DNA of 31,226 bases from Dehalococcoidia bacterium (GTDB lineage: Bacteria; Chloroflexota; Dehalococcoidia; DSTF01; WHTK01). Shown here piece by piece: positions 318 through 10,751 of this stretch. The translations under genes were made by a program, and so were the position numbers. Within the stretch, counting starts at the first letter, position 1. Every line of letters starts with the position of its first letter. The stretch spans positions 1 to 31,226 of the forward strand of contig DATDOP010000014.1 of assembly GCA_035293185.1 (NCBI GenBank), given 5' to 3'. The notes beneath the pieces are model-generated. The model saw only the letters and a program-made list of their open reading frames with translations, did no database searches and had not been told where the DNA came from.

Positions 318-3119
318 CTAAGGCGACGACTTGCCGGCCTTGGCTGCATCTCGTTCTGCCAGCTTCTTGTCGTAGTGAGAAGCCTCGGCAGCGATTTCGG
401 ACTTGTGACTCTTTTCCATGATCGCCGCTTCCACCGGATCCGCCGGCACCTTCTTGACACCCGAGAAGTCGATCGGGCGCCAGCGGCCGTCAGAACCGAC
501 GAGGCCCTGGGTATCACCGGTGGCGGCATAACCGAGTTTCCAAAGGGCGTCACCGTAGTTGCGCACGTCCTGGCCGGTTTGCGGTGAAAGCGCATCGATG
601 ACCGCATCGGTCTCAGCTTTCGCCTGGGCGAAGCCGGGTTCGCCCGGCTGCGCGTAGTTTTGCGTGAATCCGCCCTCGACCTTGCCCATGGCGAAGGCCC
701 AGTCTTTGTCCATGGGTACCACGCCGTAGAACTCCGGCCCGAAACCGGTCTCGGCGGCGGCCTTGGCCCCGGCGACCTCACGAGCGAAGAAGTCGGCGTC
801 GACGTTGCCGGTGTTGGGCTTGAGGATCTTGACCACTGCGTCGACTTCCTGGCCGTTGGGCAACTTGATGCGGGCTTCGAAGACGCCGTAGCGCTTGCGT
901 CCGGCGGTTGAGCCCTTGAAGCCGGACACGCCGATGGGCTTGGTGCGATCGATGGAGACGACCTCGGCGCTGTCGGAGACGACGCGGGAACGCGTTGCGG
1001 TACCGGCCGGCCCACCGCCGGCTTGTGTATCGACTGGGGCCGTCGTGGTCTCGCCGGTCTGAGCGTGCGCGTTATCGATGGCGGCCTTGCCGGCGGCGTC
1101 GGTGTCGCCTTTCGTGGTTCCCTCATCGGTGGTGGTCGTCTCGCCCGGCTTCGTGCCCTCGCCGGGAGTCCCCTCCTGCGTGGTCGTGGTCTCGCCGGGC
1201 TTCGTCCCTTCGCCTAGCTGTTTGAGGCCCGCAACGTCCTGTTCCGTGAGGTTGTTCCACTCTTTGCCTTTGAGGTTGGGAACGCCGGTCACGATATCGA
1301 CGGCACCGCCGACGATCACGCTCTGGACTGTGTTCTTGGCTACCTTGTCGATGAGGTCGTCCATGTCCTTGGGCCAATCGCCTTCGAGCATGCCGGTAAC
1401 CGTGATGTCGATAGGCGTCGTGAGAAGGCTGGAGCCGACGTCCGCGACGCGGGCAACCACGAACTGCCGCACTGCCTCGTTGGGGATGACAGTCGCCAGG
1501 CGCGGGCCCAGCAGGCTAGCGAACTTGCTACCCAGCGCACCACCGATCATCGAGCCGATGAACGTCATGGCGGCGTCTTTGCCGGTCTTGAACAGGATGG
1601 AGCCCGGATCGAACTTGCCCTGCGCCAGCTGCATCGCGGTCTCTTGCGTGAACGTACCGGTTGCCGCGCCGGCGGCAGACCCGGCGCTGATACCGATCAG
1701 GCCGTACGCCTTGCCCATGACGCCACCACCAACCGTGAGCACGATGTTGCAGCCGGCACGGACGTACTGGAGACCGGTGACAACGGTGCTTGCGCCCTGG
1801 TTGACGCGTTGACCATACGTGACGGTCTTGCGGTAGAACTCCTCGATCTCGTCGGCCACCATGGGCATCGCGACGAGAGCAGCCTCGTACTGGTCGAGGC
1901 CCACCGCGAGGTCAACCTTGAGCAGGTGGTTGTAGATCTTCAGGTAATCGTCGCTGGAGATCAGAACCCGCTTCACGCGATCGAGTTGGGCTTCGTCGAG
2001 GGAGCCGACGAACTCCATGATCTCCCACGGGTTCATGTCTTTGAAGGTCTTGCCCGGGGGCAGCAGCTTCTCGGCAGCCTTCAGGTCAATCTCGCTGCTG
2101 AAGAACTCAGAGACAGCGCTAACGCCGGGAAACTCAGCCTTGCGCTCGCGTTCGAATTCCCACTCGGACTCGGCCTTTTGCCAGATCTCCTGGAGTTTCT
2201 TGAGGTATTCTTTCGCGGCCCGCGCCATGGGGCTATTCATGACGCGGCTGTAGTAGTCGGTGATCGCTCCGGGGATGCTCAGCATCTTGTCCCAGGTGAT
2301 CAGGCCGCCTTCGGTGGGCAGGGCGACGCCGTTCCAGAACGGACCCTTGAAGCCCTCTTCGATGGGGAAGTCGCCGAGCAGGGTGAGGGTGGTTGGCTTC
2401 GATGCCAGACCGACAACCCAGCTCTTACGAAAGTCCTCCTCAGCCGTAATGTTCCATTCCTGGGGGGCGAGGATGGCGCGGTCGATCAACTTCGTGGTGT
2501 CGAGTTCGATGCGCGTGACAGCGGGCGCGTCTTCTGCCTTGTTCTGCAACCGCTCGAGCTTGTCCTGGTATTCGCCGGTGAAACGGTAGGAATTTGAACC
2601 GGGGGGTGCCCAGCCCTCGCGCTCTTGCTTCTCACGCTCTCGCTTGTCGAAATCCTGGATCTCCTGGTTGAGGTTCTGACGGCGCATGCGCCAGGTGATG
2701 GCGTCCTGTATGTCCTTGTAATGCTCAGGCAGCATCGCGGCCGCGAGGTGCGGGAACCGTGAGGCAACGATGTCCTCAGCGCGAGGTACCGCAGGTGCAG
2801 TCGTGCTCGCTGGACCCGGCGCGCGCTGGATCGAGGCGGCCGGCTCACGCTGGATTGCGCCGCCTCTGGGCAGGCTGCGCATCAGGGAGAGGCGCGAGAG
2901 GCCCGGCGCACCGGCTGCGCCCGCCAGCAGGGGCGCGTCGTCTGCTTCACGCCGGTTGCCGACCAACCTGGCGAACGCCGCGTTGCCGAGGCCGCTCTGC
3001 AGCTTACCGACGAAGTCCCGTTCGGCTTCGGGCTCCGGTTCGGGGTCGCGGCCGGCGGCCAGCGAATCGTGGTCCGCTGCGGCTTCGATTTCGTGGAGTT
3101 TGCGGCGACGGCGCTTCAT
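318..3119 (-). CDS. Large modular toxin/effector-like protein (933 aa) with C-terminal protein-kinase-like domain
   Basis: Long ORF; probable start ATG 3119 (MKRRRRK) rather than 3158. N-terminal LQSGLGNAAFARLV and two IQR motifs, charged helical region, Gly/Ala-rich hydrophobic segments, T/E/G/P linker, then kinase-like motifs (VVKIL, FAREV, GFGPEFYG, AMGKVEG, GDTQG, IDFS). ORF reality is well supported; function is inferred. Confidence 0.75.
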   Translation of the reverse strand: MKRRRRKLHEIEAAADHDSLAAGRDPEPEPEAERDFVGKLQSGLGNAAFARLVGNRREADDAPLLAGAAGAPGLSRLSLMRSLPRGGAIQREPAASIQRAPGPASTTAPAVPRAEDIVASRFPHLAAAMLPEHYKDIQDAITWRMRRQNLNQEIQDFDKREREKQEREGWAPPGSNSYRFTGEYQDKLERLQNKAEDAPAVTRIELDTTKLIDRAILAPQEWNITAEEDFRKSWVVGLASKPTTLTLLGDFPIEEGFKGPFWNGVALPTEGGLITWDKMLSIPGAITDYYSRVMNSPMARAAKEYLKKLQEIWQKAESEWEFERERKAEFPGVSAVSEFFSSEIDLKAAEKLLPPGKTFKDMNPWEIMEFVGSLDEAQLDRVKRVLISSDDYLKIYNHLLKVDLAVGLDQYEAALVAMPMVADEIEEFYRKTVTYGQRVNQGASTVVTGLQYVRAGCNIVLTVGGGVMGKAYGLIGISAGSAAGAATGTFTQETAMQLAQGKFDPGSILFKTGKDAAMTFIGSMIGGALGSKFASLLGPRLATVIPNEAVRQFVVARVADVGSSLLTTPIDITVTGMLEGDWPKDMDDLIDKVAKNTVQSVIVGGAVDIVTGVPNLKGKEWNNLTEQDVAGLKQLGEGTKPGETTTTQEGTPGEGTKPGETTTTDEGTTKGDTDAAGKAAIDNAHAQTGETTTAPVDTQAGGGPAGTATRSRVVSDSAEVVSIDRTKPIGVSGFKGSTAGRKRYGVFEARIKLPNGQEVDAVVKILKPNTGNVDADFFAREVAGAKAAAETGFGPEFYGVVPMDKDWAFAMGKVEGGFTQNYAQPGEPGFAQAKAETDAVIDALSPQTGQDVRNYGDALWKLGYAATGDTQGLVGSDGRWRPIDFSGVKKVPADPVEAAIMEKSHKSEIAAEASHYDKKLAERDAAKAGKSSP
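1120..1214. repeat. Two imperfect copies of a 51-bp unit (17-aa period, GEGTKPGETTTT[Q/D]EGT) in the linker of the large protein
   Basis: Copies start at 1120 and 1171 (ccctcatcggtggtggtcgtctcgcccggcttcgtgccctcgcc vs ccctcctgcgtggtcgtggtctcgccgggcttcgtcccttcgcc); differences are mostly synonymous. Confidence 0.85.
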
Positions 3120-3172
3120 GCGGCAGGCAACCTTCACTCGCGGCGAGACACACCACAAGGCCGCCGCGGCGG

Positions 3173-7464: not shown

Positions 7465-8283
7465 TCAGGCAGGTATCTCGAGGATCATCCCGACGTGGAT
7501 CTTGGTGGGATCGTCGCCGATCTTGGCACGGTTGGCCGCGTAGATCTGCGGCCAGCGGGCGCCATCCTGGTAGTAGAGCACAGCGATGCGGAACAGGTTG
7601 TCGCCGCCTGCCACCTCGTGTTGACGCGCACCCGGCGTTGCCGGTGCCGCTGTGGGCGCTGGCGTCGCGGGCTGGGCAACCGCGCTCGCGGGCGTCCCGG
7701 CCATCTCCGCCAGCACGCGCTGGATGAATGCCGGAGCATCGAACTTGCCGCCCGCCGCGAGGTCGCTGCCGGGGTCAGTCTTGCCGAGGCGGCGGCCGTT
7801 GTCCGTGTTTTCGTGGCCGGTGATGCCGGTTGGGACGGCGCCCGCCTGGTTGACACGATCGAGCCAGACCGGAGGGATGCTGTACTTGCTGCAAAGCAGC
7901 GCTACCTCTTTCGCCGCGCGCGCCAGGGTCGCCTCGGCGAAGTCCTCGGTGAAGTTGCGCTGAGCCAGCTCGAAGCTGATGGCGTACCAGTCGACCGACC
8001 AGTGGCTGCCCTCGAATCCGAAGCCGGCGGAGTAGGTGGGAGACATGTCGTCCGGCCAGGAGACGCACATCTGGCCTTCGTGGCTGATGATGCGGTTGGT
8101 CGCGCCACCCCAGCCTCCCTGGTTGTTGTTGGGGCTGAGCAGCCAGTTCTTGGTTGCCATGTACTGGCGGTCCTGCGTCGTATCGCCGCGCGTTGCATGA
8201 ATGACGATGAGCTGGATGGGATGGGCACGGGGGACGGCGAGCCAGGGCTGAGGGTTGATCGTCTCGTCGGGAAGGGTGGTCAT
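7465..8283 (-). CDS. N-acetylmuramoyl-L-alanine amidase (Amidase_2-like) with C-terminal LysM domain
   Basis: IVIHAT, ISFELAQ, TGHE and KTDPG zinc-amidase motifs; Pro/Ala/Thr linker; HEVAGGDNLFRIAVLYYQDGARWPQIYAANR...IHVGMILEIP LysM; no signal peptide visible. Confidence 0.85.
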   Translation of the reverse strand: MTTLPDETINPQPWLAVPRAHPIQLIVIHATRGDTTQDRQYMATKNWLLSPNNNQGGWGGATNRIISHEGQMCVSWPDDMSPTYSAGFGFEGSHWSVDWYAISFELAQRNFTEDFAEATLARAAKEVALLCSKYSIPPVWLDRVNQAGAVPTGITGHENTDNGRRLGKTDPGSDLAAGGKFDAPAFIQRVLAEMAGTPASAVAQPATPAPTAAPATPGARQHEVAGGDNLFRIAVLYYQDGARWPQIYAANRAKIGDDPTKIHVGMILEIPA

Positions 8284-8322
8284 CGCGCACCTCCAGGCAG
8301 GTCAAGAGATAGACGGTAGGCG

Positions 8323-8351
8323 ATTCTGTCGCACGCGCAGAGGCCTGTCAA
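8323..8351 (-). promoter_or_regulatory. Sigma70-type promoter for the amidase-LysM gene
   Basis: TTGACA-N17-CAGAAT on the minus strand, about 40 bp upstream of the ATG at 8283, with GGAGG RBS. Confidence 0.55.
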
Positions 8352-8387
8352 TCCCGCTGCCGGGCAGAGCCGCGCGTACGCGATTCG

Positions 8388-8417
8388 TTGACGGCCCGGC
8401 GTTGGCGGGTGGATCAT
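8388..8417 (+). promoter_or_regulatory. Possible sigma70-type promoter for the hydrolase-MFS-lactonase operon
   Basis: TTGACG-N18-GATCAT; AAGGAG RBS before ATG 8448. Confidence 0.35.
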
Positions 8418-8447
8418 CCGCGCGGTCAGTAGCGAAGGAGAGACGAC

Positions 8448-9290
8448 ATGCCAATTGCCAACGTGCGCGGCGCCAGCATCCACTACGAAGTTCTCGGCGA
8501 TTCGGGCCCCTGGGTTGCATTGTCCCCCGGCGGGCGCCGCGGTCTCGACGCCGTAGCTTATCTCGCTGAGCGAATTGCGGCCTCCGGGTTCCGCGTCCTG
8601 CTGCACGACCGGCGCAACTGCGGCACGTCCGACGTCATACTCGGCGGCGAGGACGCGGAGTACGAGATCTGGGCCGACGACCTGCACGAGCTGCTGCTGC
8701 AGCTGGGCGCGGCGCCGGCCTTCGTGGGTGGGACGTCGTCGGGTTGCCGCCTGGCGCTGCTGGTCTACACGCGCCACCTGGACGCTGTGCGCGGCCTGCT
8801 GCTCTGGCGGGTCACCGGCGGGGCGTTCGCCGCGGGACGGCTGGCCCGGAACTACTACGGGCAGTACGTCGAAGCGGCGCGCGCGGGTGGCATGGCGGCT
8901 GTCTGCGGGACGGAACACTTCAGTGAGCTGATCGCCGCCAATCCCGCGACTCGCGACCGGATCATGAACCTCAACCGGGAGCAGTTCATCGCCGACTTCA
9001 CGCGCTGGGAGCGAGGTTTCCAGGAGAGCGCTGACCTGCCGGTAATCGGCATGACGGCGGCAGATCTGGGCCGGGTTGCAGTGCCGGCGTGCATCGTGCC
9101 GGGCAACGACAAGACTCATCCGCGGGCCGTCGGCGAGCAGGCCGGGAAGCTGATCCCCGGCGCTGAGGTCTGCATCCTGCTGCAGACCGAGCACCCGGAC
9201 GTGGACGTGTCGCCCGCGGAGGAGCTGGAGGAGGTCGCGGACCAACACGCGAAGCTCTACGTGGACTTCATGAGGAAACACGGCGCCTGA
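8448..9290 (+). CDS. Alpha/beta fold hydrolase
   Basis: HYEVLGDSGP, LLHDRRNCGTS, GGTSSGC nucleophile elbow, IVPGNDKTHP. Confidence 0.85.
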   Translation: MPIANVRGASIHYEVLGDSGPWVALSPGGRRGLDAVAYLAERIAASGFRVLLHDRRNCGTSDVILGGEDAEYEIWADDLHELLLQLGAAPAFVGGTSSGCRLALLVYTRHLDAVRGLLLWRVTGGAFAAGRLARNYYGQYVEAARAGGMAAVCGTEHFSELIAANPATRDRIMNLNREQFIADFTRWERGFQESADLPVIGMTAADLGRVAVPACIVPGNDKTHPRAVGEQAGKLIPGAEVCILLQTEHPDVDVSPAEELEEVADQHAKLYVDFMRKHGA

Positions 9291-9323: not shown

Positions 9324-10751
9324 ATGAGGTCTCTCGGCCTGCTGAAGGGCCTGACGGAGGCGGAGGTCAGGCTGCTCGTCGTGCTGGGCGTCGGCGCCTT
9401 CGTGCTAGCGAGCACGTACAGCAGCATCAACGTGGCGCTGCCGGAGATTCAGCGCGAGTTCGACGTTAGCCTGTCAGCGCTGAAGTGGGTCTCGATCATC
9501 GGCGCGATCATGGTGGCGAGCCTGTCGTTGAGCTTCGGACGCGTCGGCGACCTCGTGGGACGCAGGCGCATCTACAAGGCCGGCATCATTATCTACACGC
9601 TGGGCTCGGGGCTGACGGCGCTGTCGATGTCGTTCCCGCAGTTGATGGCTTTTCGCGTGTTCATGGCCATCGGCCTGGCGATGTCCAACCCGCTGGCCGG
9701 GGCGATCATCGCCGCGACGGTGGCGCCGGAGCGGCGGGGGCAGGCGGTGGGCATCTTCGCCTCGTTTCAGGCCGCGGGGCAGCTCACCGGCCCGACGTTC
9801 GGCGGGATCATCCTGGACTTGCTGAGCTGGCGGGCGATCTTCGTCAGCTACCTGGCGATTGGCATTGTGCTCTGCGTCGCGCAGCAGTTCTTCCTCAAGG
9901 GCACGGAGGAGCGGCGCCACGAGGCGTTCGACTATCCCGGCGCCGTGTTGCTGCTCGTCGGTTACCCTTCGTTGCTAATTGCCCTCAGCGTGGGGCCGGG
10001 CTCTGGTTGGGGCTCCCTGCTGACCCTGGGTTGGTTTGCCGTGGCCGCCGTGGGCCTCGCCAGTTTCACCGTCCGGGAGTTGAGGTTCGATAAGCCGATC
10101 TTCCACTTTCGCTTCTTCCGCAGTTCGACGTTTTGCGTAGCCATGTTTACGCTGGTGGTGGCGTCGTTCGTGCAGAACCCGATCACGCTGTTTGCGCCCC
10201 TCTATCTGCAGAAAGTGCTGACCGTCGATCCGCTGACCGTCGGCTTCGTCATGATGGCGCTGCCGCTTTCGACTCTCATCGCCGGTCCGATCGGGGGCAG
10301 CCTTGCTGACCGGTACAACCCCCGCATCGTCGCCGGGGCCGGCGTGATGATCACCCTGCTCGCGGTCCTGATCTATTCGCGCCTCGGCGTGGACGAGACC
10401 CTGCTGCCGGTCGTGTTCGCACTAACACTCGTTGGTTTGGGAGCCAGCCTGTTCCGGCCGGCCAATCAGGTCGCGGTGTACGCGCAGACCGAGCGTCGCG
10501 ACTTCGGGGCGCTCGCCGCCATGCTGGTGTTGATCCAGAGCCTCGCGGGGACGCTGGGCACTACAATCGCCGTGGCCGCGAACGAGACCCGGGCGACGGG
10601 CGACGACCCCGCGAACTTCGTCAAGGGGCAGCAGTTCACGTTTACGGCGCTTCTGCCGCTGCTGGCCCTGTCTGTGCTCGTCTCGTTCATCGGAAGAGCG
10701 ACCTCGGGCAGGAAAAAGGCCGTCGAGGGCGAGCTTGAAGTCACCGGCTAG
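9324..10751 (+). CDS. MFS transporter, DHA2 (EmrB/QacA-like) drug:H+ antiporter family
   Basis: Many hydrophobic helices; INVALPEIQREF, FGRVGDLVGRRRIY (motif A), GPTFGGIILDLLSWRAIF, FDYPG. Confidence 0.92.
   Translation: MRSLGLLKGLTEAEVRLLVVLGVGAFVLASTYSSINVALPEIQREFDVSLSALKWVSIIGAIMVASLSLSFGRVGDLVGRRRIYKAGIIIYTLGSGLTALSMSFPQLMAFRVFMAIGLAMSNPLAGAIIAATVAPERRGQAVGIFASFQAAGQLTGPTFGGIILDLLSWRAIFVSYLAIGIVLCVAQQFFLKGTEERRHEAFDYPGAVLLLVGYPSLLIALSVGPGSGWGSLLTLGWFAVAAVGLASFTVRELRFDKPIFHFRFFRSSTFCVAMFTLVVASFVQNPITLFAPLYLQKVLTVDPLTVGFVMMALPLSTLIAGPIGGSLADRYNPRIVAGAGVMITLLAVLIYSRLGVDETLLPVVFALTLVGLGASLFRPANQVAVYAQTERRDFGALAAMLVLIQSLAGTLGTTIAVAANETRATGDDPANFVKGQQFTFTALLPLLALSVLVSFIGRATSGRKKAVEGELEVTG

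Follow-up and report, generated by a model that had tools for sequence, protein, structure and literature searches.

What does a large protein with a kinase-like end do in an environmental Dehalococcoidia bacterium, and how might it reach its target? The question is raised by a minus-strand gene at 318..3119 of a 31,226-nucleotide stretch of DNA (the window). The window is the complete 31-kb contig DATDOP010000014.1 (C14) of a metagenome-assembled genome (MAG; GCA_035293185.1; 2.57 Mb, 73% complete). An earlier note had pointed out kinase elements and an unusual D-x-Q-G loop in the last ~200 aa of the encoded protein. The protein under study is referred to as P0001, other P-numbers denote its database relatives and L-numbers denote genomic loci. 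Our analysis suggests that P0001 is probably an orphan cargo polymorphic toxin of the type belonging to extracellular contractile injection systems (eCIS)/Photorhabdus virulence cassettes (PVC), with an ATP-dependent minimal kinase as its warhead.

Fold and family of the C-terminal domain

The minimal protein-kinase-like domain occupies residues 732-942 (333..965, minus; residues are numbered in a 946-aa frame that begins upstream of the start codon). It was recognized by AlphaFold, Foldseek, VIA-align, an ESM Atlas shape search and a profile match. The AlphaFold model, built with alignment A1 as input, has a predicted local distance difference test score (pLDDT) of 96.4 and a predicted template modelling score (pTM) of 0.91. 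Its elements run in the order of a five-strand N-lobe, helix alphaC, a hinge, two helices, four short strands and one 35-residue C-terminal helix, and the model contains neither an activation segment nor a substrate-binding alphaG lobe. In domain numbering, K777 lies in strand 47-55 and E794 in helix 64-79, and strands 86-89 and 95-100 follow, leading into the AFAM-x-x-x-G-G hinge. The earlier note had mentioned one helix, placed after the DFG-like motif. One long helix does follow the catalytic strands, but two further helices, equivalent to alphaD and alphaE, precede them.

AlphaFold plus Foldseek had been named beforehand as the check on a protein kinase-like (PKL) fold, and the model superposes on this fold. 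Foldseek returned 471 matches in the PDB at E ≤ 1e-3, and all matches listed were kinases or kinase-fold domains, headed by the lanthipeptide kinase CurKC and followed by EphA3, CDC7 and the RNase L pseudokinase domain. VIA-align, which is independent of Foldseek and was run against 48,161 chains, ranked Rio1 (Z 12.8), Rio2 (12.7), RNase L (12.3), NleH1 (11.3), HopBF1 (10.7) and OspG (10.3). The likeness to minimal effector kinases such as OspG and NleH, proposed from motifs, is thus borne out in structure, with 154 of 160 residues aligned in NleH1 (4lrj), 168 of 176 in HopBF1 (6pwd) and 160 of 169 in OspG (4q5h). The Atlas shape search led to clusters of Pkinase and of class III lanthionine synthetases (LanKC) with template modelling (TM) scores of 0.56-0.65. 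The A1 profile matched the N-lobe of fructosamine-3-kinase (FN3K) in the PDB (E 0.005), with Lys, Glu and hinge in register. Taken from the predicted model, a PKL fold is almost certain.

The kinase motifs were found on the minus strand exactly where the earlier note had placed them, and conservation was counted in A1, which holds 77 near-complete copies of the domain. Lys777, the putative beta3 ATP-binding Lys of VVKIL (828..830), is K in 73/77 and lines up with the beta3 Lys region in FN3K. Glu794 of FFAREV (777..779), its predicted acidic partner in alphaC, is Glu in 52 homologues and Asp in 21, which makes this position acidic in 73/77. The catalytic loop G-D882-T-Q884-G (504..518) was delimited by conservation and DSSP and has the family consensus G-[E/D]-x-Q-G. 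Its acidic residue is kept in 73/77 homologues (E 46, D 27), Q884 in 75/77 and the following Gly in 71/77. The Asp of I-D897-F-S (462..473), the equivalent of the metal-binding DFG Asp, stands at the end of strand 8 and is D in 74/77 and N in the other three. His918 in the C-terminal helix (405..407) is nearly invariant (H in 73/77) and is retained in degenerate members as well.

Conservation also bears on the suggestion that the domain is a catalytically dead pseudokinase serving as a binding or scaffolding module. Such a role might be read from the missing catalytic-loop Asn and canonical GxGxxG, and from the persistence of four members (P0051, P0064, P0070 and P0079) without the Lys and both acidic residues, two of them apparently encoded by tandem giant genes of an eCIS operon. 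The five positions of K777, E794, D882, Q884 and D897 (K/[ED]/[ED]/Q/D) are, however, kept jointly in 72/77 homologues, P0001 included. Those four members make up four of the five exceptions, and in them the IDF Asp was lost together with the Lys and both acidic residues, while the invariant glycines, T861, D864 and H918 were retained. If these residues make up a functional site in most members, their joint loss in a minority would be expected, and the pattern suggests that an active site has decayed where a few copies became pseudo-enzymes. A dead domain in P0001 therefore appears very improbable, and the warhead is likely an active ATP-dependent transferase.

A phmmer search of 1.84 billion cluster representatives retrieved 113 related to the domain, 85 of them at E ≤ 1e-10 (best E 5e-98). 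The domain alone, used as a query, gave no match in Pfam, NCBIfam, PADLOC or PDB sequences, and a Pfam search of all 77 members at E ≤ 1 gave scattered chance matches only. Judged by sequence, the C-terminal ~210 aa are thus a real family for which Pfam, NCBIfam and PADLOC hold no model. Of the 85 representatives with most of the domain, 68 have it at the C-terminus, as do 46 of the 60 with at least 500 aa. Together with its occurrence on polymorphic, eCIS_core-tagged proteins, this agrees with the unnamed kinase-toxin family that the earlier note had envisaged.

Other family members come from metagenomes, and one comes from an actinomycete (Kribbella). The Kribbella protein P0082 (WP_452236094.1, Kribbella sp.) is a 4996-aa WXG100-like protein with two internal kinase-like copies (~1517-1663 and ~1878-2001), indicating that the module is also used outside eCIS-type carriers and not at the C-terminus only. 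A genome from the same genus as that of P0001 carries the label uncultured Chloroflexia bacterium, and the label of close homologues is Dehalococcoidia. In this Chloroflexia MAG (contig CAVQCN010000001.1, L007 7905-11386), a copy 40-50% identical lies at another locus, adjoining cytochrome bd oxidase. Its reading frame switches near 9375 and continues for 254 codons beyond the kinase domain. The break is either a sequencing error or a sign of a decaying gene.

The catalytic loop among known kinases

In protein kinase A (PKA), strand 6 is followed by R-D166, a 3-10 turn ending in N171, and strand 7. In the model of the toxin domain, helix 135-150 (the alphaE equivalent) leads to strand 153-155, G157-D158-T159 and strand 160-163 (domain numbering), and by DSSP residue 158 is joined without any helical turn to strand 160-163, which corresponds to strand 7. 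Gln884 stands at +2 from the acidic residue, at the start of strand 7. The IDF Asp comes directly after strand 169-172, 11-12 residues from strand 7, as in ordinary kinases. The pattern D-x4-N occurs nowhere in the domain, which confirms the absence of the canonical catalytic-loop Asn that had been noted for the HxDxxxxN motif. In the alpha-kinase ChaK, as described by Scheeff and Bourne, the catalytic-loop helix is also missing, the link to strand 7 is nearly linear, and the amide of Q1767 takes the place of N171 (PMC1261164). From this topology we infer that D882 is the catalytic carboxylate, Q884 the substitute for Asn and D897 the DFG Asp.

The D-x-Q-G loop had led to the idea of a hybrid with alpha-kinases, and its extension would be that the domain is a bacterial relative of the eukaryotic eEF2K/TRPM7-type enzymes. 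With ChaK/TRPM7, eEF2K and MHCK the domain shares D-x-Q-G, the lack of a catalytic-loop helix and a loop running straight into strand 7 (PMC1261164), and in the relative P0121 the domain at the C-terminus reads DDLQF...ADP. The analogy of the catalytic loop therefore stands, but kinship does not. Alpha_kinase (PF02816) gave no match to P0001 at E ≤ 10 and does not appear in the list of 25 families that the 77 members gave at E ≤ 1, no alpha-kinase structure is in the top 50 of either Foldseek or VIA-align, and the kinases with which the N-lobe and hinge do align are of the RIO, FN3K and NleH types. Alpha-kinases have a zinc-binding Cys/His module in their C-lobe, as seen in the ChaK and MHCK structures. 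The toxin domain has two His and no Cys, so this module cannot form. Descent from alpha-kinases is accordingly the least probable of the alternatives weighed here, and since sequence matches, top-ranked structures and Cys are all missing, the economical reading is convergence of the loop on a RIO/NleH-like minimal scaffold.

Among known effectors, NleH1/NleH2, OspG (PF22303) and HopBF1 are the most similar. They have the same stripped-down PKL fold with one C-terminal helix and no activation segment or alphaG-I, and VIA-align covers nearly their whole crystal chains (Z 10.3-11.3). They are delivered into other cells as toxic or effector domains, a delivery that is predicted here for P0001. They differ in that their loop ends in Asn where the toxin domain has [D/E]-x-Q-G, and in that they are secreted by type III secretion systems (T3SS), whereas the toxin domain sits on an eCIS-type carrier in environmental Chloroflexota and other phyla. 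PF22303 matched neither P0001 nor the 77 members, and the sole pointer to it is a language-model lead from the Atlas with a score of 0.92.

RIO kinases (Rio1 1zp9, Rio2 1tqi) are the best structural matches (Z 12.7-12.8, root mean square deviation ~3 A over 162-166 residues) and are likewise small atypical kinases without an activation loop. They retain a D-x4-N catalytic loop. Unlike the toxin domain, RIO kinases are housekeeping ribosome-biogenesis factors and not toxin modules, and the toxin domain has no RIO1 Pfam match. The kinase domains of LanKC and CurKC resemble it in shape, as the Foldseek and Atlas rankings show. Overall, the domain most resembles NleH/OspG/HopBF1 in function, RIO and LanKC in structure and alpha-kinases in the loop, and by sequence it is a member of none of these groups.

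A kinase-fold toxin domain has been described from PVC secretion system (PVC-SS) toxins, where Tox-Peptide Kinase stands behind a PVC-metallopeptidase/DUF4157 tag and has the motifs DxH, YKP[KR], DxHxEN and DxE (Zhang et al. 2012, PMC3482391). It was reported from Firmicutes and keeps the canonical Asn (PMC3482391), which the family described here does not have. A search of 114 family proteins found D.H.EN in none and YKP[KR] in one, probably by chance. A kinase warhead on PVC/eCIS toxins is thus already known as a concept (PMC3482391), whereas the present family and its loop appear undescribed. No paper describing this kinase-toxin family was found in a full-text literature search.

What the domain modifies is less clear than its fold. 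It could have a kinase fold and yet act on small molecules, lipids or nucleotides like the aminoglycoside phosphotransferases (APH), FN3K and choline kinases, or catalyze AMPylation or glutamylation like SelO and SidJ. The only sequence-level PDB match is to FN3K, a small-molecule kinase, and stray weak Pfam matches among members are to ABC1 and Choline_kinase. Protein kinases typically neither interchange Asp and Glu at the presumed base nor lack the catalytic-loop Lys and Asn, and the model has no activation segment and no alphaG lobe for substrate binding. The exchange at the base is the chief reason why such chemistry stays a live alternative. However, the closest folds (NleH1, OspG, HopBF1 and RIO) have equally minimal C-lobes and phosphorylate proteins (PMC9950578), the nearest Atlas shapes are LanKC peptide kinases, and the large helical C-lobes of APH- and CK-type kinases are absent from the toxin domain. 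We consider chemistry other than protein phosphorylation unlikely for the domain, and a protein substrate for the warhead is predicted tentatively, at close to even chances.

Leader, carrier and linkage to injection systems

The open reading frame (ORF) spans 318..3158 on the minus strand and has 946 codons from an in-frame TTG at 3158. The ATG at 3119, downstream of this TTG, is the probable start, because both the 99%-identical 933-aa P0115 and the Atlas record start there. The gene so defined (318..3119, stop codon at 318-320) encodes 933 aa.

The protein begins with a hydrophilic leader with a basic tip (MKRRRRK...; 3003..3119, minus), which is a candidate cargo-loading sequence. The Kyte-Doolittle sum over the first 50 aa is -47.5, and the first 21 aa have a net positive charge. 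These features resemble those reported for leaders of eCIS cargo (PMC11297309; bioRxiv 10.64898/2026.05.27.728243). The motif LQSGLGNAAFARLV follows at residues 53-66 (2961..3002, minus; consensus LQxxxGNxAxxxL[LIV], xGNxAxxRL type). In ~15 other family members it is found in the N-terminal 200 aa (16 regular-expression matches including P0001, of which that in P0026 looks like chance), and in P0015 and P0017 it lies ~40 aa upstream of eCIS_core. In a genome-wide six-frame scan, the motif recurred only in a DUF4157 protein encoded within an eCIS cluster on contig C263, as LLSALGNSGVQRLM, near the N-terminus and at a similar distance from the start as in P0001. A degenerate second leader motif, DAPLLAGAAGAPGLSRLSLMRSL, was observed at window positions 2871-2939 (residues 74-96 in the 946-aa frame), followed by IQR-type repeats. 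It aligns with the motif region of the same in-cluster DUF4157 protein (BLASTP E 0.008).

A constant carrier region (residues ~100-650; 1209..2861, minus) is common to toxins with other C-termini. A search with residues 100-700 as the query retrieved 17 proteins, and residues ~100-650 are 47-85% identical to P0116-P0125 over ~550 aa by BLASTP. The junction motif VTGVPNLKGKEW (1257..1292, minus) was located from the BLASTP end-points of P0121-P0125 against P0001 and from their C-termini. Directly after VTGVPNLKGKxW the carrier homologues diverge into different toxin ends, which are Tox-SHH (an HNH nuclease toxin) in P0124 and unrelated domains in P0122, P0123 and P0125. The P0121 end is a second small kinase-like domain (hhalign against A1, E 0.0034, with DDLQF...ADP aligned to GExQG...IDF), and this domain may represent a sister family with the same D-x-Q loop. 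It spans residues ~690-893 and contains a Gly-rich GSGGNKDVFE, a VLK Lys and DDLQF...ADP. It bears the precomputed label PF26324, and the family behind the label could not be named.

Cargo toxins of PVC/eCIS have a constant N-terminal part and swappable C-terminal toxins, usually without immunity genes (PMC3482391; PMC8213781). P0001 and its carrier relatives read as this classical polymorphic-toxin design.

A hydropathy scan of the carrier identified Gly-rich, moderately hydrophobic helical segments at residues 470-491, 532-551 and 611-629 (1272..1751, minus), with nearly invariant Gly/Ala columns in alignment A4 and low-confidence helices in the model. These segments are possibly a membrane-insertion or tape-measure-like part, by analogy to Tme (PMC11126660). 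The C263 cluster encodes a 723-aa protein at its tape-measure position, which was compared as a candidate homologue and is not similar to P0001. The AlphaFold model of the carrier (residues 90-720) has a mean pLDDT of 60 and is confident only for ~122-460. For this region no Foldseek match was below E 1 and VIA-align gave generic helical bundles only, so that no PDB fold was assigned. A low-complexity Thr/Gly/Ala/Glu linker, recognized by composition count and translation, contains a repeated GEGTKPGETTTT unit (966..1241, minus) and leads to the kinase-like domain.

Homologues of P0001 are linked to eCIS. The eCIS_core domain (DUF4157) was found in 15/45 full-length homologues of the kinase family, and it lies near the N-terminus in most carrier-region relatives, including P0122-P0125 and P0004. 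P0004 is the closest eCIS_core-bearing homologue, and its gene is located just 3' of an AAA ATPase at the 3' end of an eCIS operon. The P0049 gene (2033 aa) lies between the tube genes of another eCIS operon. The P0051 gene (2051 aa) heads a tandem of three ~2000-aa eCIS_core genes situated after those for sheath and tube (L014 5042-21197, Logan contig of SRR31638523). In its degenerate kinase domain, the Lys is replaced by Thr and the loop acid is lost. The third tandem gene encodes 2112 aa and is equal in length to P0079, with which it was compared by length alone. P0079 is also a degenerate kinase copy and has lost the IDF Asp as well. The ends of P0051 and P0079 are apparent pseudokinase warheads.

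The P0001 genome itself contains a near-complete eCIS cluster on contig C263 (L009 1-19643, minus). The cluster encodes DUF922, DUF4157, Pvc16_N, sheath, two gp19 tube proteins, a VgrG-like spike, gp25, Baseplate_J and Tail_P2_I, together with the 723-aa protein mentioned above and three Ig-domain fibre-like proteins. No AAA+ loader was found on C263. The DUF4157 protein has an acidic tail of EEEELAMSR repeats. The DUF922 gene (L009 18059-18805) adjoins that of DUF4157, and DUF922 is also the N-terminal domain of P0034 (1119 aa), which ends in the kinase domain. As DUF922 is present both in the eCIS cluster and on this kinase-ended protein, it may be another eCIS cargo tag or a processing domain.

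P0001 also shares its layout with described eCIS-associated toxins (EATs). Streptomyces Tme has a "tape-measure-related effector" layout, with a DUF4157 N-terminus, hydrophobic helices and an exchangeable C-terminal enzyme (PMC11126660). P0001 resembles EATs and Tme in its disordered leader, its long carrier with hydrophobic helices and its swappable C-terminal enzyme. P0049 and P0051 are ~2000-aa eCIS_core proteins encoded, like Tme, after sheath and tube genes (PMC11126660; PMC8213781). P0001 differs from EATs and Tme in lacking DUF4157, in its shorter length and its lack of linkage to the operon, and in having a kinase rather than a nuclease as its warhead.

Proposed delivery and mechanism, and their meaning

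These observations can be combined in the following mechanism. The leader with the xGNxAxxRL motif would direct P0001 to the particle whose genes lie on a different contig of its genome. The ~550-aa carrier with its Gly-rich hydrophobic helices, followed by the Thr/Gly-rich linker, would bear the warhead. Lys777 and Glu794 would hold the ATP phosphates, and Asp897 of IDF would bind Mg. In G-D882-x-Q884-G, the Asp would provide the catalytic carboxylate and the Gln an amide in place of the missing catalytic-loop Asn. After delivery, the domain would phosphorylate a molecule of the target cell, most likely a protein, and could thereby be toxic.

Several points weigh against this reading. P0001 has no eCIS_core, and its gene neither lies inside nor adjoins an eCIS operon but sits among housekeeping genes on a different contig. 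The likeness between its leader and the DUF4157 protein of C263 is limited to the ~14-aa motif (BLASTP E 0.008-0.66). The family is patchy and rare, being found in 2/301 genomes sampled across the phylum, namely the P0001 genome and the same-genus genome. A search for related loci with a 12-row alignment found just two. The Gly-rich loop is long and atypical, with ~21 residues between the first two strands, and is the block of lowest pLDDT (88). The Gln-for-Asn role proposed for Q884 is read from topology, and the interchange of Glu and Asp at the presumed base, unusual for protein kinases, may signify other chemistry.

The first of these points also raise the possibility that the kinase warhead is real but P0001 is not eCIS cargo, and that it is exported in another way (Sec-independent release by lysis, or a type VII secretion system (T7SS)-like route) or acts inside its producer. 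The domain does occur in the WXG100-like Kribbella protein, which suggests a T7SS-type context, and in one PT-TG protein, and the same-genus copy at L007 is likewise an orphan, with a broken frame. The carrier region, however, otherwise occurs with an N-terminal eCIS_core, and the leader motif is common to P0001 and the in-cluster DUF4157 protein and to no other protein of that genome. In AlgoCIS, loading needs the disordered N-terminal region but not DUF4157, and the cargo proteins of one system share N-terminal similarity (bioRxiv 10.64898/2026.05.27.728243). These results make an unlinked cargo protein without DUF4157 plausible. By analogy, P0001 may be loaded into the particle of its own genome. 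Delivery by an eCIS is the probable route, and export by other means or action within the producer is doubtful, even more so than chemistry other than protein phosphorylation.

The neighbours of the P0001 gene encode a lactonase, a monooxygenase and hydrolases, which are ordinary metabolic functions. The G+C content of the gene is ~0.64, not distinct from that of the contig. The gene downstream of P0001 is an open frame without a Pfam match that is truncated at the contig end, and judged by eye it looks like an AhpD/carboxymuconolactone-decarboxylase-type protein. Elsewhere in the window (7465-9281, minus), an Amidase_2 and LysM cell-wall hydrolase gene overlaps by 4 bp an upstream 333-aa ORF without a Pfam match. 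Neither gene is linked to the toxin gene.

No candidate immunity gene was found, and no downstream gene is conserved here or in L007 and L008, where the downstream genes differ. A target that is absent from the producer, or that needs a cofactor of the target cell, would explain the missing immunity gene. In its broadest form, the proposal is of a so far undescribed kinase family that combines a RIO/NleH-like scaffold, lacking the loop helix and Asn, with an independently reached [D/E]-x-Q-G. The family would serve as an active warhead on contractile injection systems and other polymorphic-toxin carriers in several phyla, against a target of this kind. Taken together, these parts make a possible account, somewhat short of even odds.

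More than 100 cluster representatives now annotated as "hypothetical protein" could be read in the light of this family. For kinase evolution, it would be a second independent lineage in which Gln at +2 replaces the catalytic-loop Asn and the acidic position accepts either Asp or Glu, and the very small scaffold makes the minimal requirements for phosphotransfer testable. Very few cargo activities are known for eCIS, and those validated in EAT papers include nucleases, deaminases, ADP-ribosyltransferases and lipases. A compact, confidently modelled ~210-aa kinase warhead would, if true, add a signalling-type activity to this list, and its target, if found, would give a clue to the organisms that these environmental particles attack.

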